NCBI GenBank assembly: GCA_964469935.1
Contig: CAYXZQ010000005.1
Span: 1 to 57,670 of the forward strand
Direction: 5' to 3'
Origin: an uncultured Methanosarcinales archaeon
Lineage (GTDB): Archaea; Nanobdellota; Nanobdellia; Woesearchaeales; DSVV01
Length of the DNA: 57,670 bases
The notes under the pieces are model-generated. The model did no database searches. It was given only the letters and a program-made list of their open reading frames with translations, and was not told the DNA's origin. Numbering within the stretch: position 1 is the first letter of the stretch; each line of letters begins with the position of its first letter. The position numbers were made by a program, and so were the translations under genes. This document shows positions 14,059 through 45,493 of the stretch, one piece after another.

Positions 14059-14787
14059 TTAAATACTGCCAATCTGCTCTTTCCATATCCTGACTGCGTT
14101 CTCTTTCGTGTCAGAGACCGTCCTCGGCGGGTTCGTGTCGAGATAGACCACTTTCGACTTGAAGTTGAAAAACAGCTTCCTCAACCAGTCAGACTCGTAT
14201 CTCTCCTCCACGCTCCTCTGGAAGGCGAGGTTCTCGAATATCGCATGGTCCTTCTTTCCCCTGTCGCTCAGGCGCTTGATGACGACCGCTGGCTCGACCT
14301 TGAGTATTATGAGCAGGTCAGGTGCATTCTTGAGCGCGAGCCTGTTTCCCGGCAGGTTCATTATGTCCTTGAGGCTCATCCTCTCCTGCTGGATCGGCTG
14401 GTAGACTATGGATGTCACAACACCCCGCTCCTGCAGGATTATCTTGCCTGCAGCCCTCGCAGGTATCAGGAGCTTCTTGTACAGAATCTCCCTGTCGAGC
14501 GAGAATGCATGGGCCGTAGTCAGGGCTGAGTATTTCCTGTTGTTGTCCCGGACGATCTCCTCGCGGATTACCTTGCCGACCATCGAGAATGTCGGCTCGG
14601 CAGAGCAGATGACGTCGTACTGCCGGACATCATCAAGCTCGGGTATCTCGTTCTTCTCCTTCCAGTATCTGCGGAGGTCGAAAATCTTCAGCCCCCTGCT
14701 TTCGAAATAGTCCTTGAGGGAATCTATGACTACTCCCTTGCCCCCTCCGTCCAGGCCGTCCACCATCAGAAACTTCCCGTCAGCCAT
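14059..14787 (-). CDS. tmk: Thymidylate kinase
   Basis: P-loop DGLDGGGKG, AEPT, FSLDR, ERG..TSIVYQ, PDLLI; lies in a thyA/folA neighbourhood. Confidence 0.85.
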   Translation of the reverse strand: MADGKFLMVDGLDGGGKGVVIDSLKDYFESRGLKIFDLRRYWKEKNEIPELDDVRQYDVICSAEPTFSMVGKVIREEIVRDNNRKYSALTTAHAFSLDREILYKKLLIPARAAGKIILQERGVVTSIVYQPIQQERMSLKDIMNLPGNRLALKNAPDLLIILKVEPAVVIKRLSDRGKKDHAIFENLAFQRSVEERYESDWLRKLFFNFKSKVVYLDTNPPRTVSDTKENAVRIWKEQIGSI

Positions 14788-14862: not shown

Positions 14863-15858
14863 TCATCTCGCATTGCCTGTATCTGTCTCGAACAGGTACA
14901 TCGGCAGGTAGGACCTCTTGTAATAGGTGAAGAAGTCTATGAGGTTGAAGCTCTCGATGAGGTCGCGGAATTCCCGCCTCATGCGCATGATTATGGCCCT
15001 GGTCCTCACAGAGCCCTCGGCCTCTATGTCGACTTCCAGGTCCCAGTCCCCGACAGTCTTGTTCGCCTGCACGATCTCCTTTGTCTTCTGGAGGTGCTCG
15101 TTGAGCTCCTTCTCGCGCTCTGCGCTGATGTTGTGCAGCCGCAAGAAAAGCCTGCACTTGTTGAGTCCCAGTGTGTCGGTGTCGAGTATGCTCTTGTAGC
15201 CCTTGATGACGTTTCTCTCCTCCAGGCCTGTCAGGACTGATTTTGCTGTCTTTATGTTGAGGCCGGACCTCTTTGCAAGCTCTGTCAGCCTCAGCTTCGG
15301 CTCGGCCAGGATGTTCTTTATCACCGCTTTTTCGTTAGGGCTGAAGTCTGCAAGCTCCCTGTCCCCGCCGATGATGACCTCTATGTTGGATGCCTCATGG
15401 CTGTTCGTGGTCAGCATAAAATTCCTCGGGAATAGGTATGATACGAGATTGAGGATTATCTTGTAGTCGTTGAGCGTGGGGAATATCTGCACTATCTTCT
15501 TGAGCTCCTTGTTGAATTTCGAGGGATTCGGGCAGAGGAATTCTGCGACGAGGTCGAACTCCCCTGTCAGCTCGTAGGTGGTGGTCACATACGGGTTTGA
15601 ATTGAGCTGGTTGAGTATCCTCTGCTTGTCGTTCTCGCTGATGTAGCCTCCTTTGAAATACACCCTGAAGAGGATAAGCCCGAAGTAGGAATAGTCGAAC
15701 ACGCAGAAAGGCTCCTTTATGATGCCGCTCTTTCCGAGGACAGAGATTGAATATTTAAGCCGCTGGGGGCTCTTTTTGAGACGGTTGGACATTTCCCTGA
15801 GGCCCATTCTTGAATTTTCTGTAACCATGTAGAGTAACTCGTAATCGTATTTTGCCAT
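14863..15858 (-). CDS. Tandem (double) Lrp/AsnC-family transcriptional regulator
   Basis: Two HTH plus RAM-like repeats (ELTGEFDL and KTVGDWDL). Confidence 0.85.
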   Translation of the reverse strand: MAKYDYELLYMVTENSRMGLREMSNRLKKSPQRLKYSISVLGKSGIIKEPFCVFDYSYFGLILFRVYFKGGYISENDKQRILNQLNSNPYVTTTYELTGEFDLVAEFLCPNPSKFNKELKKIVQIFPTLNDYKIILNLVSYLFPRNFMLTTNSHEASNIEVIIGGDRELADFSPNEKAVIKNILAEPKLRLTELAKRSGLNIKTAKSVLTGLEERNVIKGYKSILDTDTLGLNKCRLFLRLHNISAEREKELNEHLQKTKEIVQANKTVGDWDLEVDIEAEGSVRTRAIIMRMRREFRDLIESFNLIDFFTYYKRSYLPMYLFETDTGNAR

Positions 15859-15968
15859 TTTTTGGCATATATTTTTATTTATTAATAAATTTTTGCATTT
15901 TTTTGGAAAAAAATAAAAAACAATCATGGATAACTATAAATATAGGTAAATGTATATTAGTAGGTATC

Positions 15969-16616
15969 ATGTGTTTTGCTGATGATATTGAAGGAAGAGT
16001 AATGGGCTATGATGCTGATGGACCTGCGCCTGAAATAGTCGAGACCCTGATAGAAAAGCTCAACAAGGTCAAGTACGAGTTCAATGAGAGAAGGAAGAAA
16101 AGCCATGACTGGGATCCTGAGAAAAAATGCGGGGCAATGGTCGTAGTCGGCTACAGCCCGGATTCACATTCCGAGTATATCAAATATCTCAATGAAGACG
16201 TGATAGGTCCTGTCTATAAGCAGAATCCCGAGAGGACCCACATAAGCAATCCAGAGGCGCTTGACCTGCTCATGACCGCTGCGACAGAGACCGACGGGGC
16301 GATTCTGATGGATACTGAAGGTTATCTCCTTGCAAGCGGCTATGTGATCACAAACCTGTCTCTGGACGATATCGCTGTAGAGATGGGCAGGCCGAACAGC
16401 AGGCCTCTCTGGCAGAGATACAATTTCTCTTCAAAGGTCGGCACAAAGCACTGCTCAGCCGCGGCAGGCTCGTATGTGATGCCTGATGTCTATATCGTCA
16501 CCATGAGCGAGCAGAAGGAGGATCCTGTAATCAGGGTCCTCAAGCAGGGGCAGATAGTCAGCAGCCCCTATGATAGGGAATTGTCCCCTCCTCTTGAGAA
16601 CCTGATCCATATCTGA
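15969..16616 (+). CDS. Diadenylate cyclase (DisA_N/DAC) domain protein with a variant RHR motif
   Basis: GAMVVVG, ETDGAILMD..G, VGTKHCSAAAGS and IVTMSE follow the order of DAC motifs. Start is uncertain. Confidence 0.75.
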   Translation: MCFADDIEGRVMGYDADGPAPEIVETLIEKLNKVKYEFNERRKKSHDWDPEKKCGAMVVVGYSPDSHSEYIKYLNEDVIGPVYKQNPERTHISNPEALDLLMTAATETDGAILMDTEGYLLASGYVITNLSLDDIAVEMGRPNSRPLWQRYNFSSKVGTKHCSAAAGSYVMPDVYIVTMSEQKEDPVIRVLKQGQIVSSPYDRELSPPLENLIHI

Positions 16617-16633
16617 AAGATATCGTGTTATTT

Positions 16634-17113
16634 TCACTTTCTCTTATACGTCAAAAAAGAATACTCCTCGTGCTTTTCCTCAGAGACGAGCTTCCACACA
16701 GACAAGTCTATATCCGGAAAGAACGTGTCAGCATCCTCTATGGTCCTGTGCACCCTTGTGAGCTCTATCGTGTCCGCGTCATCCATCGCGAGCCTGTAGA
16801 CCTCGGCCCCGCCGCATATGAAGACCTTTTCGCTGTCGTCCGCCCTTTCCAGGGCCTCTTCCCAGGAATGGACGACAATGGCGCCGGACGCTTCATACTG
16901 CCTGTCAGATGTCAGCACAATATTGAGGCGTCCGGGAAGCGGCCTCGCATTATCAGGAAGGGACTCGAATGTCTTCCTGCCCATTATGCAGGGATGGCCC
17001 ATTGTCATCTTCTTGAAGCGCGAGAAATCCTCAGGTATGTGCCAGGGTATGGTCCCTCCTTTTCCGATCGCATTGTTATCGGATACGGCGACGATCAGCA
17101 CCATCTCTGACAT
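16634..17113 (-). CDS. folA: Dihydrofolate reductase
   Basis: IGKGGTIPWHIPEDF, IMGRKTFESL, PLPGRLNIVL, ICGGAEVY, DTFFP. Confidence 0.97.
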   Translation of the reverse strand: MSEMVLIVAVSDNNAIGKGGTIPWHIPEDFSRFKKMTMGHPCIMGRKTFESLPDNARPLPGRLNIVLTSDRQYEASGAIVVHSWEEALERADDSEKVFICGGAEVYRLAMDDADTIELTRVHRTIEDADTFFPDIDLSVWKLVSEEKHEEYSFLTYKRK

Positions 17114-17979
17114 CAGACAGCCACCTCGAAGCTGATTCTCGGGTGGTGGTCGTAGCCGACTACCTCTGTGTCGGTGTATTTCCAGTCGAATATCGATGTG
17201 AAGCTATTTGTCCTGACCTTGGGCAGGGGAAAGGGCTTCCTGTTGAGCTGCAGTCTCAGGCCGTCCACGTGATTGAGGTAGATGTGGGTATCGGCGAGAA
17301 AGCCGACGAGCTTCCCTTCCTTGTACCCTGTCTCTTTTGCAAGAAGGTGCAGCATCAGGCCGTAGCTCGCTATGTTGAAAGGTACACCCAGCGCGACATC
17401 GCAGGACCTCTGGTTCCAGAGCAGGTTCAGCCTTCCGTTTAGCACGGTCACCTGGAAACCGTAATGGCAGAATGGCGGGAGAACCTTGCCCACGTCCATC
17501 GGGTTCCACGCCATGCATATCATCCTCCTGTCGCTCGGGTCTTTCTTGAGGGTGTCGACGATTTTTTTGAGCTGGTCGATTCCTTTTCCCTTGGGCTTCT
17601 TGTCGAATCCCGTGTATTTTGCGCCGAAATTCCTCCACTGCCATCCGTATAGAGGCCCGAGGTCCCTCTCTTCCATCATCCTCTTCTTCGTTGCCTCGTC
17701 ATGAGCATACGGGATGATTGCCGGGCTGCACCATTCGTCCCATATGTGATTGTTGCGTTCCTGCAGCCATCTCTTGTCGGTTATGCCCTTGATGAAGAAC
17801 TCGAGCTCTGATGCGACTAGCCTCATGGGAACGCTTTTCGTGGTCACAAGCGGGAATCCGTCCGCCATGTCGTGCTCGAAGATGGCCCCGGCAATAGCGA
17901 TCGTGCCGACCCCTGTCCTGTCCTCTTTTTTCACTCCCTCGTCAAACACTTTCTGAACAATGTCAAGGTATGCCTTCAT
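17113..17979 (-). CDS. thyA: Thymidylate synthase, bacterial-type ThyA
   Basis: DRTGVGT, FPLVTTK, IWDEW, LGPLYGWQWR, PFCH, QRSCDVALGVPFN, DTHIYLNH; translationally coupled to folA. Confidence 0.97.
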   Translation of the reverse strand: MKAYLDIVQKVFDEGVKKEDRTGVGTIAIAGAIFEHDMADGFPLVTTKSVPMRLVASELEFFIKGITDKRWLQERNNHIWDEWCSPAIIPYAHDEATKKRMMEERDLGPLYGWQWRNFGAKYTGFDKKPKGKGIDQLKKIVDTLKKDPSDRRMICMAWNPMDVGKVLPPFCHYGFQVTVLNGRLNLLWNQRSCDVALGVPFNIASYGLMLHLLAKETGYKEGKLVGFLADTHIYLNHVDGLRLQLNRKPFPLPKVRTNSFTSIFDWKYTDTEVVGYDHHPRISFEVAV

Positions 17980-18043
17980 TTTCCACCCCTGCGAAAAATG
18001 GGAGAAAGGAGTAATATAAATAAGTTTTTATGCCTCAGGCTAT

Positions 18044-19387
18044 TCACACATCGCTCATGTACAGGTGTGCTGAGAAATCAGTGAGCACGAGCGGGCCCCT
18101 GGCAAACCCTGTCTTTCCTGCGACATGCTGGTGAAGGGTGCCCAGGGCATATAGGTTCGGGACGAATGCCCCCTCGCCTTCCATGAGCCTGCCTTCCTTT
18201 GTCACTGTCGCTATGTGCTGGCTCCTGTAGGCAGAGTGCATCTCGAGTTTCTTTCCCCTGACCACGAACCAGATGAAGTCAAGGCAGGGCGGACTGCTTG
18301 TGTCAATATCCTTTTCCGGGTCCCAGAGGGTTATCATGCACCTTCTCGTGTTCGGGTTCTTCTTCAGGACCGCAATCGCCCTGTCCACCTGGTTGCCCCA
18401 TCTCCTAAATATCCTGTCATGGTAGGTGTAGGCGAACTCGTCAAGCTTCTCGCCGGTCCCGTCCATGAACTCGCTGACGTATTTCTTTATGTAATCCTCG
18501 GAGAAATGCTCAGGTATCTTCTGCAGCACGTCCCTGATCGTCACGCTGAACGAGCGGGACTCCATGGTTATGACCCCTCTCTGGTCCCTGAACATGTCGC
18601 CTTTCTCGTACACGAATGCAGTCACCATCTCCAGTGCGTCGACCAGGTTGTCGGCGTGGACTGTCTGGCCAAGAGGGAGCCTTGAATATTTCTCTATGAA
18701 TTTCACCTTCTTTGCTGTCGTCGACAAATCAAGCTTGTATGGCTTGTCGAACCTGGCACCGTCATCATATAATCTTTTGTTCTTTATGACCTGCGAATAG
18801 AATTCCACGTCATCAGGCACAGGGGTCGCATCCTTTGGCCATTCAATCATGCACCTCACGAGCTCCTGTGTCCTTTCGAAATCCCCGATGTTCCTGATGA
18901 CGACGAGATCGCACTGCCTCCTGACCCTCTCAAGGGCGTCAAGGGGAACCTGCTCGAATTTCGGGTTGGGCGACTTCGAGCCGATGATTATCCCATTGCC
19001 GTCGACACCGTTCTTCCAGAAATTAGTGAGCGCCTCCGCGAGGAGATGGCCGTTGTCCCTGAGCCCGAACACGAGGAGCACCAGCTTGTTGATGTTGGGG
19101 TTTGCGAGGATGTTTGCAAAGACGTACCTGGCGCCGTTAGTGGTCTTCCAGAGCCCAGCCATGTTGGCATAGCTGGAAATCTTCTGGAAGAATTCCATGA
19201 CATCTTCGGGCGGCCTGTCGCTCTTCCAGGTATACACGAATCCTGCTGCGATGTTTGAGGAGGGGTTTCCCATGATCACGTCGTCGGAGGAGAACAGCTG
19301 CATCTTCGGCAGCTCGTCAGGCTCGAATTTCATCTTCTTTATGTCTTTTTTCAGGAAAGGGTCCCTGCCTATCTTCTCGATTCTCAT
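18044..19387 (-). CDS. Fusion of an MtrA-like (corrinoid-binding) N-terminal domain and an archaeal-type thymidylate-synthase-like C-terminal domain
   Basis: N-terminal ANILANPNINKLVL...NGHLLAEAL..FWKNGVD..G.IIGS resembles MtrA. C-terminal YTYHDRI..WGNQV...NPNTRR...LWDP...PPCL...RS...PN...SAHLY resembles TS. Likely start is 19387; the track start overlaps the divergent gene. Confidence 0.8.
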   Translation of the reverse strand: MRIEKIGRDPFLKKDIKKMKFEPDELPKMQLFSSDDVIMGNPSSNIAAGFVYTWKSDRPPEDVMEFFQKISSYANMAGLWKTTNGARYVFANILANPNINKLVLLVFGLRDNGHLLAEALTNFWKNGVDGNGIIIGSKSPNPKFEQVPLDALERVRRQCDLVVIRNIGDFERTQELVRCMIEWPKDATPVPDDVEFYSQVIKNKRLYDDGARFDKPYKLDLSTTAKKVKFIEKYSRLPLGQTVHADNLVDALEMVTAFVYEKGDMFRDQRGVITMESRSFSVTIRDVLQKIPEHFSEDYIKKYVSEFMDGTGEKLDEFAYTYHDRIFRRWGNQVDRAIAVLKKNPNTRRCMITLWDPEKDIDTSSPPCLDFIWFVVRGKKLEMHSAYRSQHIATVTKEGRLMEGEGAFVPNLYALGTLHQHVAGKTGFARGPLVLTDFSAHLYMSDV

Positions 19388-19432
19388 CGTCGAATGAAAA
19401 AATATAAAACATAAAAACTTTTCCTTTGGCCC

Positions 19433-20011
19433 ATGAAAGTAATCGCCGTAGTCGGGATGTGCGGCTCGGGCAAGAGCGTGGTCGCGGACATGCTCAGCAA
19501 AAGAGGCCTGGGCTTTCTCAGGTTCGGCCAGCTGACCCTTGACATAGTCAGGGAGAAGGGCCTCGAGCCCACTGAGGAGAACGAGCGTCCCATCAGGGAA
19601 GGGCTCAGGAAGGAGCATGGCATGGCAGCATTCGCCATACTCAACATCCCGAAGATAGACAGGCTTCTTGAGAAGGGAAGTGTCGTGGTCGACGGCCTGT
19701 ACAGCTGGGAGGAGTATCTCGAGATGAAGAGGAAGTACGGCAGCGATTTCATCACCCTGGCAGTATACGCATCGCCCGCGACCAGGTATTCGAGGCTCTC
19801 GGCCAGGAAGTTCGACAGCAGCAAGGACAAGGAGATGAGGTTCCGGCCCCAGACCCCGGAACAGTCCAGGTCAAGGGACCATGCAGAGATAGAGAACATG
19901 AGCAAGGCCGGGCCGATTGCGATGGCAGACTACACGATTGTCAACGAAGGCAGCATGGAGGACCTGGAAGCACAATTCAACAGGTTTTCAGGACTTTTTC
20001 TTTCGAGGTGA
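19433..20011 (+). CDS. P-loop nucleotide kinase (dephospho-CoA-kinase-like/UPF0200 type)
   Basis: VVGMCGSGKS, VVDGLYS..E, RD.AEI, ADYTIVNEGS. Confidence 0.8.
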   Translation: MKVIAVVGMCGSGKSVVADMLSKRGLGFLRFGQLTLDIVREKGLEPTEENERPIREGLRKEHGMAAFAILNIPKIDRLLEKGSVVVDGLYSWEEYLEMKRKYGSDFITLAVYASPATRYSRLSARKFDSSKDKEMRFRPQTPEQSRSRDHAEIENMSKAGPIAMADYTIVNEGSMEDLEAQFNRFSGLFLSR

Positions 20012-20225
20012 GCCCTGATTTTATCGACACCTTCTTTTTCAGCCTCTTTGAGAAATACCTGACGAGCTCGGCATTGGCTTTGCCCTTGTCAGCAGGCGCC
20101 TTGACATTTACCCTGAACGCCTGCCTGTCCTCATCCCATCCTTTTATCTCTGTCCGTGAAGAATTCGGCCTGGCTATTATGCGGATATATTTCCCACTGA
20201 GACGCTCGTCATCCATCGGGCTCAT
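19977..20225 (-). CDS. DUF167/YggU (UPF0235) family protein
   Basis: RPNS...VNVKAPADKGKANAELVRYFSK...I.SG.TSKEK. Confidence 0.9.
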   Translation of the reverse strand: MSPMDDERLSGKYIRIIARPNSSRTEIKGWDEDRQAFRVNVKAPADKGKANAELVRYFSKRLKKKVSIKSGLTSKEKVLKTC

Positions 20226-20539
20226 TCCATCGCTGACTCGACTTTCTTGAGAACTTTGTCCACTGCAAACATCAGGTTAAGGTGTGTGACTTCAGCATTG
20301 TAGTTCTTGTCAGCGACAAGCAGGGCGCGAAGCTCATGCTTTCCCGTCGACTCGCTTTCCTCGCTGGTGTGTATCTTCTTGAGGGTCACTGTCAGGCTCT
20401 GGAATTTCGGGTTCTTCTCGCTGACCTTCTTGACGAAACTGCCGATTATCTTCTTGATGATAATCATGCTCCCGCCATCGATGTCCTTGAAGCCAGAAAG
20501 ACGGATGCTCCCCCCAAGCTCGATTGTTTCTTCAGCCAT
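20222..20539 (-). CDS. Small conserved-looking protein, possibly HPF/RaiA-like fold
   Basis: Helix-strand-strand-strand-helix pattern ending in YNAEVTHLNLMFAVDKVLKKVE. Fold call is inference. Confidence 0.6.
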   Translation of the reverse strand: MAEETIELGGSIRLSGFKDIDGGSMIIIKKIIGSFVKKVSEKNPKFQSLTVTLKKIHTSEESESTGKHELRALLVADKNYNAEVTHLNLMFAVDKVLKKVESAME

Positions 20540-20646
20540 ATTAGATACTTCTGCACGCGAAAATGTAACTTTATATATAATAATGATTGCAATTGATATT
20601 TAAAAATTTTTCGAGTCCACTCTTAGAATTCTCCATCTTCAGCCTG

Positions 20647-21021
20647 TCAGAGGCGCGTTTTGTCGAATTCCCGCCTGACAGCCTCTTTGTATTTATCAAT
20701 GGCCTCGCCCGGGATGTAGTTATGCTCCTTTATAAAAGAGAATGCCTCTTCGAAATCATCCATGGCAAGGGCATTCTCAAGGCCTATTACCCCTGTCCCT
20801 GTCCCGTCGATCTCAATGACTCTCGACTTTATGAAGCTGATTGCGTCCTTCGGGCAGATGGGCTTGCAGGAGTCGCATCCTTCGAGGCATGCATCAGGAT
20901 TCTCAACTATGGGCCTTCTGCCCTGCCTTGAATAAACCTTCTGCGGGCAGAAATTCAGGCACTTGAAGCAGTCATCCATGCACCTGCCGGAATCTATCAC
21001 CGGGAACCAGTCAGCTGCCAT
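20647..21021 (-). CDS. Ferredoxin-like 4Fe-4S dicluster protein with a C-terminal extension
   Basis: CMDDCFKCLNFCP and CLEGCDSCKPICP. Confidence 0.8.
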   Translation of the reverse strand: MAADWFPVIDSGRCMDDCFKCLNFCPQKVYSRQGRRPIVENPDACLEGCDSCKPICPKDAISFIKSRVIEIDGTGTGVIGLENALAMDDFEEAFSFIKEHNYIPGEAIDKYKEAVRREFDKTRL

Positions 21022-21104
21022 TATAATATATAACATTCCCTATGTTATAAAACTTTCGCCGGGCTCCGAAACTGTTTTATAACAAATTCCATTCCTGCAG
21101 CAGC

Positions 21105-22367
21105 ATGACAAGGGTGTATTTCAAGACATTCGGCTGCTCGCTCAACATCTCTGATACAGAGGCGATGGAGGGGCTGCTTGCAGACTTGGGCTATGAGATG
21201 GTCGATGAGCCTCAAAAGTCCGAAGTGATAGTCATCAACACCTGCGCTGTGAAAAAGCCCACAGAGAACAGGGTCCTGAGATATCTCAGGGAGGCTGAGT
21301 CGATGCGCAGGCCGATAGTCATAACAGGCTGCATGGCCCAGGCTATGCCGGAGAAGTTCAAGCAGCATTCCTTGCTAGGCCCTGACAACCTTGGAAGCAT
21401 AGCCGAGATAATCGAGGAGACCATGCACGGCAATCCGCAGGTGATGCTCGATAGGGCTGACAGCCCAAGGCTGGGCCTTCCCAGACTCAGGAAGAACAGG
21501 ATTATAGAGATAATACCCATATCCAGGGGATGCAAAGGCGAATGCTCGTACTGCATCGTCAGGCAGGCCCGGGGAGGATTTAGGAGCTATCCCAAGGAAG
21601 ACGTCGTGCGCCAGGCTGAAATGGCAGTTGCGAAAGGGGCGAAGGAGCTCTGGCTCACTGCCCAGGACACCGGCTGCTATGGCATGGACATAGGCTCGTC
21701 GCTCACAGTGCTGCTCGAAGAGATAACCAAGATAGAAGGCGATTTCTTCATCCGGGTCGGCATGATGAACCCCGACCATGCGAAACGGATGCTCGACGGG
21801 CTTGCCAGGGTCTTTCAGAATGAGAAGCTCTTCAGGTTCCTCCATGTGCCTGTCCAGTCAGGTAATGACAGGGTCCTTGAAAAGATGAAAAGGAGGTATA
21901 CTGCTGAAGATTTCAGGGATATCGTCAGCAGGATCAGGCAGGAGATACCTGACATCACCATCGCGACTGACATAATCTGCGGGTTTCCCGGCGAGACAGA
22001 GCAGGAGTTCAATGATTCGGTGCGCCTGGTGGAAGAGCTCAGGCCGGATGTCCTGAACATTTCCCGGTTCTGGTCGAGGCCGAAGACAAGGGCTGCTAAA
22101 CTGTTTCCCCTGTCAGGGGAGGTGACCAAGAACAGGAGCAGGAAGCTGACGAGCGCATTTTCATGGACAGGGTTCGAGACCAACAAGAAGTGGAGGAACT
22201 GGGAGGGCCCAATAATCATCGATGAGGAAGGAAAGGGCGGCTCATGGGTCGGCAGGAACAGCTCATACAAGCAGGTCATAGTCGATGGAAATTACAGGCT
22301 CGGGCAGAAGGTAAATGTGAAGATAGAGCATGTCACGGCCCATGACCTCAGGGCAAGGGAAGCCTAG
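21105..22367 (+). CDS. mtaB: tRNA t6A37 methylthiotransferase (archaeal MtaB/CDKAL1 type)
   Basis: TFGCSLN, NTCAVK, GCMAQ, radical SAM GCKGECSYC, RVGMMNP, DIICGFPGET, C-terminal TRAM. Confidence 0.92.
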   Translation: MTRVYFKTFGCSLNISDTEAMEGLLADLGYEMVDEPQKSEVIVINTCAVKKPTENRVLRYLREAESMRRPIVITGCMAQAMPEKFKQHSLLGPDNLGSIAEIIEETMHGNPQVMLDRADSPRLGLPRLRKNRIIEIIPISRGCKGECSYCIVRQARGGFRSYPKEDVVRQAEMAVAKGAKELWLTAQDTGCYGMDIGSSLTVLLEEITKIEGDFFIRVGMMNPDHAKRMLDGLARVFQNEKLFRFLHVPVQSGNDRVLEKMKRRYTAEDFRDIVSRIRQEIPDITIATDIICGFPGETEQEFNDSVRLVEELRPDVLNISRFWSRPKTRAAKLFPLSGEVTKNRSRKLTSAFSWTGFETNKKWRNWEGPIIIDEEGKGGSWVGRNSSYKQVIVDGNYRLGQKVNVKIEHVTAHDLRAREA

Positions 22368-45400: not shown

Positions 45401-45493
45401 ACGGCAGTGGTCCAACGGCTAAGACACGACCCTCCCAGGCAATATTTATTGCGGAGTGAGGTCGTTATCCGGGTTCGAATCCCGGCTGCCGTA
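45401..45493 (+). tRNA. tRNA-Gly(CCC) with a 21-nt intron at 37/38 (45438..45458)
   Basis: Acceptor ACGGCAG/CTGCCGT-A, anticodon stem CGACC/GGTCG, T arm CCGGG-TTCGAAT-CCCGG, clean bulge-helix-bulge (CTCC/GGAG). Confidence 0.9.

Follow-up and report, generated by a model that had tools for sequence, protein, structure and literature searches.

MtrA is the cobalamin-binding subunit of the methanogen methyl-tetrahydromethanopterin:coenzyme M methyltransferase, and ThyA and ThyX are the two routes to thymidylate of which we know. Folate supplies both the carbon and the hydride to ThyA, and ThyX takes the carbon from folate and the hydride from a flavin. The MtrA structure paper (Wagner et al. 2016, PMC4915002) describes a cobalamin in the base-off/His-on state, with His84 ligating the cobalt. 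This histidine is hydrogen-bonded to Glu54, which is itself bonded to the backbone of Ile111; Asn55 and the NH of residue 82 are in contact with the corrin propionamides, Asp17, Lys52, Thr53, Gly57 and Asn64 keep the nucleotide tail in place, and the benzimidazole lies between Tyr18, which stacks on it, and Val61. Bacteria and non-methanogenic archaea, the paper notes, also possess MtrA homologues, in which His84 is 'mostly conserved'. Fusions of an MtrA-like domain to a catalytic methyltransferase partner (MtrAH) are described, with a putative function, from Asgard and other non-methanogenic archaea. Here, a gene is analysed that joins an MtrA-fold domain to a short thymidylate synthase (TS) domain; the MtrH partner of MtrAH belongs to the methyl-pterin side, whereas the TS partner in this fusion would be the methyl-acceptor side. 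The gene lies at 18044-19387 on the minus strand of a 57,670-nucleotide stretch (the window; contig CAYXZQ010000005.1 of assembly GCA_964469935.1, deposited as an uncultured Methanosarcinales archaeon). It is intact and encodes a protein of 447 residues, P0001, with an MtrA-fold N-domain and a short TS C-domain.

P0001 represents a two-domain enzyme of Woesearchaeota-type DPANN archaea that is real and strongly conserved. At least 120 close relatives share 45-100% identity with it, and the conservation counts given below refer to the 120 listed. Named relatives come from Woesearchaeota, Nanoarchaeota or Nanobdellota, some third-party annotation (TPA) bins being labelled 'uncultured Methanosarcinales', and the Atlas cluster of P0001 (60 members) is commonest in Nanobdellota. 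Database entries of this family go under the names 'thymidylate synthase', 'thymidylate synthase (methanogen type)', 'MtrA' or 'hypothetical protein'; an earlier reading of this DNA from its letters alone (the sequence-only reading) had expected similar fusions among uncharacterised database entries, and that is where these relatives were found. A search of CC-licensed PMC papers and bioRxiv found no description of an MtrA/TS fusion, although one elsewhere is possible, and searching the same literature for the methanogen-type TS MJ0757, DUF4346 and PterinBD likewise found nothing on such a fusion. From the alignments and models described below, it is tentatively proposed, as the best of the readings considered, that P0001 may act as an accessory cobamide-dependent dUMP C5-methylase, a possibility that we take seriously and hold with reserve. 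The features of the gene are as follows.

18044..19387, minus strand: whole fusion gene of P0001, 447 codons plus TGA (open reading frame list; start fixed by 34 relatives)
19307..19387, minus strand: N-terminal beta-hairpin, residues 1-27, before the MtrA core (AlphaFold 2 (AF2) strands 2-9 and 14-20, predicted local distance difference test (pLDDT) >90)
18818..19306, minus strand: MtrA-fold, cobamide-type Rossmann-like domain, residues 28-190 (PF04208; phmmer and Foldseek to 5laa)
19133..19144, minus strand: T82-T83-N84-G85 loop, equivalent to MtrA Thr53-Glu54-Asn55-(Leu56)-Gly57 (phmmer alignment)
19046..19057, minus strand: D111-N112-G113-H114 loop, with H114 equivalent to MtrA His84 (phmmer alignment)
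18671..18817, minus strand: inter-domain segment, residues 191-239, with the motif Y207-D208-x-G210-x-R212 (conservation, AF2)
18047..18670, minus strand: short, methanogen-type TS-fold domain, residues 240-447 (TIGR03283, PF00303, PDB matches)
18284..18289, minus strand: P367-C368, with the catalytic Cys nucleophile (ungapped alignment to 1lca; Cys in 120/120)
18215..18226, minus strand: R388-S389-Q390-H391, the RSxD motif with His for the folate-anchoring Asp (E. coli D169; two alignments)
18170..18205, minus strand: clade-specific insert of about 12 residues, at about residues 395-406, ending in G404-E405-G406-A407 (alignment gaps)
18155..18157, minus strand: N411, equivalent to E. coli N177 (alignment to E. 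faecalis TS; Asn in 120/120)

The minus-strand open reading frame (ORF) ends in a TGA stop at 18044 and is open upstream as far as 19618. The start was placed at 19387 because all 34 aligned relatives begin at the methionine there and any start further upstream would run the frame into the divergent gene (19433-20011); the longer frame from 19618 (524 residues) was rejected for these two reasons, and the gene extent and length of 447 residues given by the sequence-only reading agree with the relatives' common start. A search with the TS region for shorter proteins, aimed at split or stand-alone forms, returned only seven fragments on short contigs, which gave no evidence of split genes.

The N-terminal half had been read as following the MtrA pattern, and the comparisons made here agree. 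Pfam MtrA (PF04208) matched at 53.6 bits against a cut-off of 25, phmmer aligned P0001 with the MtrA structure 5laa at E 5.3e-16, and an AF2 model of residues 1-240 (pLDDT 85.3) was compared with the PDB by Foldseek. Its top seven matches were all MtrA chains, the eighth having an E of 3.7e-3. The match to 5laa had an E of 1.7e-10, a TM-score of 0.71 and 34-35% identity; target-normalised TM-scores of the top seven ranged from 0.49 to 0.76, with six at 0.71-0.76 and 9qts_A at 0.49. An MtrA fold, on which the sequence-only reading depended, is therefore what structure prediction returned. The NCBIfam mtrA equivalog TIGR01111 was missed (54.1 bits; cut-off, 249.15).

MtrA residue numbers were counted along the printed phmmer alignments to 5laa and 8q3v_A, a count that reproduces H35 and H84. 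H114 of P0001 aligns with residue 84 of both structures, so that the 'GH' histidine noticed in the sequence is indeed at the position of the cobalt ligand. Among the nucleotide-tail contacts, Asp17 corresponds to D36, Lys52 to K81, Thr53 to T82, Gly57 to G85 and Asn64 to N92; at the remaining positions, Tyr18 corresponds to V37, Glu54 to T83, Asn55 to N84, Val61 to V89 and His84 to H114. T82, T83, N84, G85, N92 and H114 are each present in 119/120 listed relatives, the exception being a gap, D36 is present in 115/120, and in the histidine loop D111 and N112 are found in 119/120 and G113 in 118/120. By alignment, the N-domain thus keeps the putative cobalt-ligand His and most of the cobalamin-contact positions under strong selection. 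From this we infer that it may bind a cobamide and that any methylation by the protein may be linked to B12.

In comparison with the solved structures of MtrA and its cytoplasmic homologues (5LAA, 5L8X and 8Q3V), P0001 shares the Rossmann-like fold at TM 0.71-0.76, the ligand His, Thr53, Asn55, Gly57, Asn64 and the NPN motif. Unlike MtrA, it has no transmembrane helix and no partner mtr genes, carries Thr for Glu54 and Val for Tyr18, reads NPxFE in the meander where MtrA reads IP[FY]xEN, and possesses a TS domain and an additional N-terminal hairpin. K18 is invariant in this hairpin, to which nothing corresponds in the part of the solved MtrA structures that aligns. Between the two domains, Y207, D208, G210 and R212 are each found in 120/120 listed relatives, and pLDDT stays mostly >90 until about residue 225, with low values at 232-235.

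A TS fold for the C-terminal half was supported by Pfam Thymidylat_synt (PF00303; 36.9 bits against a cut-off of 24.3) and by an AF2 model of the full-length protein (pLDDT 88.6, pTM 0.84), which matched TS-fold PDB entries at E ~1e-11. The methanogen-type TS model of NCBIfam, TIGR03283, scored 110.1 bits (E 1e-31) over positions 3-197 of 201 against an equivalog cut-off of 174.55, and the ThyA model TIGR03284 was missed (30.1 bits; cut-off, 108.35). On these profile scores, the methanogen-type TS is the nearest family of the C-domain, but P0001 would not count as an equivalog. The stand-alone short TS proteins of TIGR03283, which we take to be of the MJ0757 type, share with P0001 a short core ending after HxY together with the Cys, RR, RS, Asn and HxY; unlike P0001, they keep RSxD, lack the insert and carry no MtrA domain. 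The canonical ThyA encoded in the window (17113-17979) likewise has the TS fold, the Cys, the dUMP-binding Arg, Ser, Asn, His and Tyr, and the dimer architecture, but it carries the Asp of RSCD, lacks the insert and continues for about 50 more residues after HxY. About 103 columns align between the two proteins, with an hhalign probability of 91%.

The equivalences to Lactobacillus casei TS were taken from an ungapped alignment of P0001 residues 333-392 to residues 163-222 of 1lca, and those of the RSxD region and beyond from gapped alignments to E. faecalis TS and the window's own ThyA. C368 falls on L. casei position 198, presumably its catalytic Cys. We take R348/R349 to be equivalent to R178/R179, R388/S389 to R218/S219, H391 to D221 (E. 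coli D169), N411 to N229 (E. coli N177), H441 to H259 and Y443 to Y261. C368, R348, R349, R388, N411 and H441 are each present in 120/120 listed relatives, S389 in 119/120 and Y443 in 114/120. The dUMP-side TS residues listed by the sequence-only reading, namely RR (348-349), PC (367-368), RS (388-389), N411 and H441-x-Y443, are therefore all present, in 114-120 of the 120.

The same reading had contrasted RSQH in this protein with RSCD in the adjacent ThyA, and in both alignments H391 does stand opposite the Asp, that of RSAD in E. faecalis TS and that of RSCD in the window's ThyA. H391 is present in 120/120 listed relatives. The insertion that follows, put earlier at about 10 residues, was close to its actual size, occupying 12 gap columns against E. 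faecalis TS and 13 against the window's ThyA; AF2 models a beta-hairpin there (390-395 and 400-402), and G404, G406 and A407 are each found in 120/120. In a motif survey of 151 proteins, for which four were added to the 147 best representatives from an exhaustive TS-domain search, RSxH was confined to the P0001 clade (P0001 itself, P0096, P0133, P0145 and fragments), which is marked by RS[HQ]H and the insert; the stand-alone proteins P0135, P0137, P0140 and P0148 have RS[NH]D and no insert. It had also been remarked that the protein ends just after HLY. This is true, P0001 ending four residues after Tyr443, but is not special to it: stand-alone methanogen-type TS proteins end at the same place, and the HLY ending carries no message because it is the rule in that family.

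A two-copy model gave a TS-like homodimer through residues 240-439, with a score of 0.78 against 0.01 for the best of three controls. The mark used in calibration was reached by 20/30 solved same-chain pairs and by 1/23 single chains. At least 73% of contacts were common to the runs, partner pLDDT was at least 79, and the MtrA domains lay outside the interface. In the model, R348 and R349 reach across to contact R388 and S389 in the partner chain. Resemblance to TS dimers of known structure may be the reason why the model passed.

The best TM-score of the full-length model, 0.75, was to 9iqu, a flavin-dependent phage dCMP hydroxylase. According to PMC13326640, D169 is 'typically conserved' in TS and N177 selects dUMP over dCMP, phage 5-hydroxy-dCMP synthases that are TS homologues with D169N use a flavin, and phages pair a TS homologue with a dNMP kinase. 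These synthases (AfhB of HY126, 9IQU/9IQC; RB69 gp48) resemble P0001 in their short TS fold and substituted Asp169; however, they combine D169N with N177D, hold the flavin in the TS domain, need O2 and act on dCMP, whereas P0001 has D169H (H391), keeps Asn177 (N411) and has a separate corrinoid-type domain. This tested precedent, in which absence of the Asp accompanies a departure from folate, favours readings in which the cofactor has been switched over a plain TS and is silent on which cofactor is used. One such reading is that P0001 produces a different C5-modified dUMP (hydroxy, hydroxymethyl or other) or removes a 5-substituent such as a halogen, with the linked UPF0200 kinase, Tmk2 and dNK handling the product, for a modified base or for salvage. 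It would fit the closest fold by TM, the description of D169 substitution in PMC13326640 as diagnostic of the phage cofactor switch, the conserved divergent UPF0200 kinase neighbour and frequent downstream Tmk2 described below, and the presence of the fusion as an extra gene beside ThyA or ThyX in 12/13 carriers. N411, Asn in all 120 listed relatives, nevertheless points to dUMP rather than dCMP, the substitution is D to H and not D to N, O2-dependent hydroxylation seems unlikely given the salt-marsh metagenome source, and no glycosyl- or other transferase gene recurs near the fusion in the two sets of neighbouring loci (16 and 11) described below. Nucleotide-level modified bases are, to our knowledge, not known for cellular genomes, which also speaks against this chemistry, and we consider it clearly unlikely.

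For a cobamide-dependent methylase, the following course is envisaged. The N-domain would bind a salvaged cobamide in the base-off/His-on state and C368 would add to C6 of dUMP, Cys addition at C6 being the scheme of all TS-fold and S-adenosylmethionine (SAM)-dependent C5-pyrimidine methylases. The C5 carbanion would then take the methyl group directly from the methyl-Co(III) of the His-on corrinoid, and elimination would yield dTMP and Co(I). Methylation of a carbon nucleophile by a cobalamin-dependent enzyme is found in TsrM. Such a route would be B12-dependent, would release no dihydrofolate and would operate beside the B12-independent ThyA or ThyX, for which the B12-dependent/B12-independent isozyme pair MetH/MetE provides a parallel. 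That the family as a whole forms a third kind of TS after ThyA and ThyX, in which a His-on corrinoid methylates Cys-activated dUMP without folate oxidation, seems to us somewhat doubtful.

If the proposal were correct, a corrinoid-dependent thymidylate route would be a new reaction class both for B12 and for the TS fold, DNA-precursor synthesis would contain a B12-dependent/B12-independent isozyme pair, and MtrA homologues would have a function outside methanogenesis. The link between MtrA and short TS, seen also in P0142, P0207 and P0172, would further suggest that methanogen short TS enzymes might pair with orphan cytoplasmic MtrA homologues, and the question of which one-carbon donor short archaeal TS enzymes use could become testable. 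For DPANN archaea, which have to obtain folate as well as cobamide by salvage, the matter concerns how DNA synthesis is kept going. Only a demonstration of B12-dependent thymidylate synthesis would make the finding categorically new; should the B12 proposal prove wrong, there is still in archaea and bacteria a large, unstudied group of MtrA-like/TS(/PterinBD) proteins with two mutually replacing modules.

This wider group was recovered by the exhaustive TS-domain search, which returned 803 proteins at E up to 1e-3. Among them are stand-alone proteins of 200-245 residues and many uncharacterised proteins of 440-510 residues that have an MtrA-like domain, a short TS and a C-terminal PterinBD-DUF4346 domain and are annotated 'thymidylate synthase family protein'. 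Atlas clusters of the PterinBD-type fusions are commonest in Cyanobacteriota, Chloroflexota, Myxococcota and Pseudomonadota. All 61 representatives with at least 150 residues before the TS domain were aligned over their N-termini. Gly-His stands at the His84 column in seven of them (P0001, P0096, P0133, P0142, P0145, P0172 and P0207), all seven matching Pfam MtrA and none matching PF14251 (PterinBD-DUF4346); among the other 54, 45 match PF14251, 21 match MtrA and one (P0193) has His at the column. The association between PterinBD and the Gly-His pattern gave a Fisher p of 2.6e-5, which is descriptive only because the rows are related. PF14251 had no match in P0001 or elsewhere in its genome. 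Read plainly, the alignment suggests that a short TS core is paired with one of two modules, a pterin-binding one or an MtrA domain in which the cobalt ligand is retained, a complementarity expected if both are alternative ways to present the one-carbon donor. The PterinBD-DUF4346 fusions thus resemble P0001 in domain order, MtrA-like followed by short TS, and in the quick tree described below its clade nests within them; they differ in having PterinBD (45/54), in lacking the ligand His (53/54) and in keeping RSxD, the P0001 clade being the reverse on all three counts. Two further Atlas leads (scores 0.82-0.88) were a cluster of 262-residue MtrA-domain proteins, half of whose members with a record come from tailed phages (Uroviricota), and an 800-residue MtrA/DUF4346 cluster commonest in Minisyncoccota (CPR bacteria).

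The wider fusions also bear on a conventional explanation, in which P0001 is an ordinary methylenetetrahydrofolate (CH2-H4folate)-dependent short TS whose MtrA-like domain serves as a scaffold, a cofactor-tail site or a B12 sensor, with His391 and the insert holding the pterin. The whole TS catalytic set is kept; serine hydroxymethyltransferase (SHMT), dihydrofolate reductase (DHFR) and FolC-like ligase genes recur among the neighbours of the fusion, and SHMT is present in the window's genome, so that CH2-H4folate would be at hand. Corrinoid-loading enzymes were not found in that genome, which is 90% complete. Among the MtrA-like/TS fusions, the majority lack the His and still carry the N-domain, which must therefore be useful without cobalt ligation, and in a quick tree the P0001 clade nests within these His-less fusions. 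However, cobalamin-contact positions that are near-invariant (119/120) are hard to explain for a mere scaffold, the pterin-anchoring Asp is absent in 120/120 relatives and kept in all other short TS proteins examined, and the clade lacks the PterinBD that 45/54 other fusions carry. P0001 is, moreover, a short TS without the C-terminal tail that is reportedly needed for dTMP formation. A C-terminally truncated TS reportedly performed partial reactions but not dTMP formation (Carreras et al., 1992), and a Methanobacterium TS is said to have catalysed partial reactions and to have formed no dTMP with methylene-pterins (Krone et al., 1994). On balance, an ordinary folate-dependent enzyme is held to be rather unlikely.

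The distribution of the gene was surveyed in 61 genomes of the same order, the window's own included. A strong match to the fusion was found in 13, nine of which have it at full length (G000, G002, G003, G006, G013, G017, G025, G047 and G049); the gene is in two pieces in G001, has an internal insertion in G012 and G019, and has a degenerate TS half in G059. ThyA is present in 5/13 carriers (G000, G002, G017, G049 and G059) and ThyX in 7/13 (G001, G003, G006, G012, G013, G019 and G025). G047, which is 99% complete, has neither, and its only other TS-fold gene encodes a 218-residue paralogue with Gly for the catalytic Cys, as does the counterpart in G002. In most carriers, then, the fusion has an accessory role, and in G047 it may be the sole TS.

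Several observations were made alongside this survey. The Gly-for-Cys paralogues (218-220 residues; L029:7545-8207 in G002 and L028:4377-5033 in G047) keep RR, R[SN]xD and Hx[YF] and directly follow a gene for a protein of 526-535 residues; the scanned G002 copy had no Pfam match, and the pair was not found in the window's assembly by tblastn. In many genomes of the order, G001, G003, G007, G008 and G012 among them, a single ThyX frame of about 460-590 residues holds two domains in tandem and gives two PF02511 matches. The forms with an extra segment between the halves (L036:6518-8176 in G012; also G019:C26, L020 and L025) are 535-552 residues long, the match breaking at about residues 195-205. 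In G059, which has ThyA and no B12-binding-domain match at E 1e-8, the 381-residue open frame L037:9504-10649 has an intact MtrA half (DNSH) and a TS half without RR, PC and RS. On a contig labelled Desulfobacteraceae, a 335-residue ORF (L026:6001-7008) is 49% identical over its first 229 residues to the MtrA half and linker, and its C-terminus is unrelated; truncation of a copy, mis-binning of the contig or transfer could each account for it.

The degenerate TS half in G059, the N-terminal half alone in L026 and the gene in two pieces in G001 might be taken to mean that the fusion is a decaying or non-catalytic relic. The window's copy, however, is intact, and the 120 listed relatives keep the catalytic and cofactor-contact residues down to 45% identity, which implies purifying selection on both domains. 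For the window's copy a relic was therefore ruled out, and as a general account it is extremely improbable.

The window's assembly (1.61 Mb in 71 contigs, 90% complete) was searched for further signs of cobamide use. Ten matches to the B12-binding domain PF02310 were found; four ORFs were checked, and three of them encode B12-binding radical-SAM proteins, so that the organism evidently uses cobamides. There was a single MtrA match and no MtrH, in the window or in the whole assembly, which extends to the genome the earlier remark that the window holds no other mtr genes. NrdJ and ThyX were likewise not found in this 90%-complete genome.

Taken together, a number of these and other observations weigh against a cobamide-dependent methylase. 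Within the N-domain, 119/120 listed relatives have Thr83 where MtrA has Glu54, the residue that hydrogen-bonds to the ligand His, so that the ligand is left without its carboxylate partner, and the benzimidazole-stacking Tyr18 is Val or Ile in the P0001 clade; the near-invariant D111, three residues N-terminal to H114, might stand in for Glu54. Methyl-loading enzymes (MtrH, Pterin_bind of the MetH, MeTr and DHPS kind, and MTHFR), a RACo/RamA-type corrinoid activator, a BtuF-type binding protein, PduO adenosyltransferase and DUF4346 were all not found in the 90%-complete genome, and no methyltransferase-like gene is among the recurrent neighbours in the 16 and 11 loci. What most weakens a classical corrinoid methyl-transfer cycle is that no loader or activator was found, although novel loading components are possible and the assembly is incomplete. 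The corrinoid-linked TS of the sequence-only reading therefore stands as regards the MtrA fold, the ligand His and the lost Asp, and is weakened by the Thr at Glu54 and the missing loader. The His-bearing fusions P0142 and P0172 keep the Asp of RSxD, so that having a His-on MtrA domain does not always mean that the Asp has been lost. In the quick TS-domain tree, the P0001 clade lies among His-less fusions, inside a starred clade of 56 rows that are mostly of the PterinBD type, and P0142 and P0207 stand elsewhere near stand-alone proteins; with 71/125 forks open and many weakly supported, the tree was used solely for the starred clade, and no order of events was drawn because of these unsupported forks. 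In the 12/13 carrier genomes that already have ThyA or ThyX, dTMP can be made without the fusion. No TS of any kind is present in five of the 61 genomes, and a deoxynucleoside kinase (dNK) gene adjoins the G047 fusion gene, so G047 may simply salvage thymidine. PF02310 matches are found in 11/13 carriers and 37/48 non-carriers, and B12-domain co-occurrence was dropped as a test for want of discrimination.

The missing methyl-pterin enzymes would be unneeded if the protein instead carried out a ThyX-like, cobamide-assisted reductive methylation, in which the methylene group comes from SHMT-made CH2-H4folate, the corrinoid acts as relay and/or two-electron donor, and H4folate is released. This would account for the SHMT and FolC link together with the conserved cobalamin site, and TS-fold enzymes can use a non-folate redox cofactor according to PMC13326640. 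On the other side, the pterin would still have to bind, yet its anchoring Asp is lost, and the scheme calls for a reductant of Co(II/III), for which no candidate was found in the genome. We also know of no precedent for a corrinoid as a methylene relay or reductant, which counts further against the scheme, and it is judged improbable.

The fusion gene lies in a thymidylate and folate-salvage context. The ThyA gene is 64 bp downstream on the same strand, and the surrounding features are as follows.

14059..14787, minus strand: dTMP kinase (TIGR00041, 87.3 bits; cut-off, 83.25)
14863..15927: Lrp/AsnC-type regulator gene
15852..16616, plus strand: ORF of 254 residues between the Lrp/AsnC-type regulator gene and folA (no Pfam match at E 1e-3)
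16634..17113, minus strand: DHFR (folA), its start overlapping the ThyA stop (PF00186, 7.7e-54)
17113..17979, minus strand: canonical ThyA with RSCD (PF00303, 309.7 bits over 1-266 of 266)
19388..19432, no strand: divergent intergenic region, AT-rich, 45 bp, common to the fusion and kinase genes (read by eye)
19433..20011, plus strand: divergent UPF0200/AdkA-like P-loop kinase (Pfam AAA_18; PDB 3lw7 and 3h0k, E ~1e-11)
19977..20225, minus strand: DUF167 (YggU) gene, overlapping the kinase gene tail-to-tail (the same pair lies beside the fusion in several relatives)
20222..20539, minus strand: ORF of 105 residues (no Pfam match at E 1e-3)

Neighbours were counted over 16 loci, comprising 15 from contigs of related genomes and the window. 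The UPF0200/AdkA-like kinase was found in eight, two thymidylate-kinase paralogues in six and five, ThyA in five, SHMT in five, DUF167 in four, and DHFR, a FolC-like Mur ligase and dUTPase in three each. A second set of 11 loci, from relatives' genomes and overlapping the first in part, showed the kinase head-to-head with the fusion gene in six, a seventh having a dNK gene in between. In many related loci, the fusion is followed closely downstream by a Tmk or Tmk2 gene, and Tmk2 often comes immediately after it. The two thymidylate-kinase paralogues are distinct, G047 carrying both in tandem (L028:14127-15600), and they were also noted in L034, L037 and L018; Tmk2 was not found in the window's genome by tblastn.

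A TATA-like run was seen by eye about 10-30 nt before the fusion ATG, within the 45-bp intergenic region. An Rfam search of 16000-21200 gave no match to a riboswitch or other RNA at E up to 1, and no RNA run was listed among the sequencing runs containing 16600-20100; the DNA runs containing the stretch are labelled as salt-marsh metagenomes. The sole match in the window to reach an Rfam gathering score was a tRNA at 45401-45493 on the plus strand. At 93 nt and with the full 71-position model matched, it probably bears an intron, and intron-bearing tRNAs are common in archaea.

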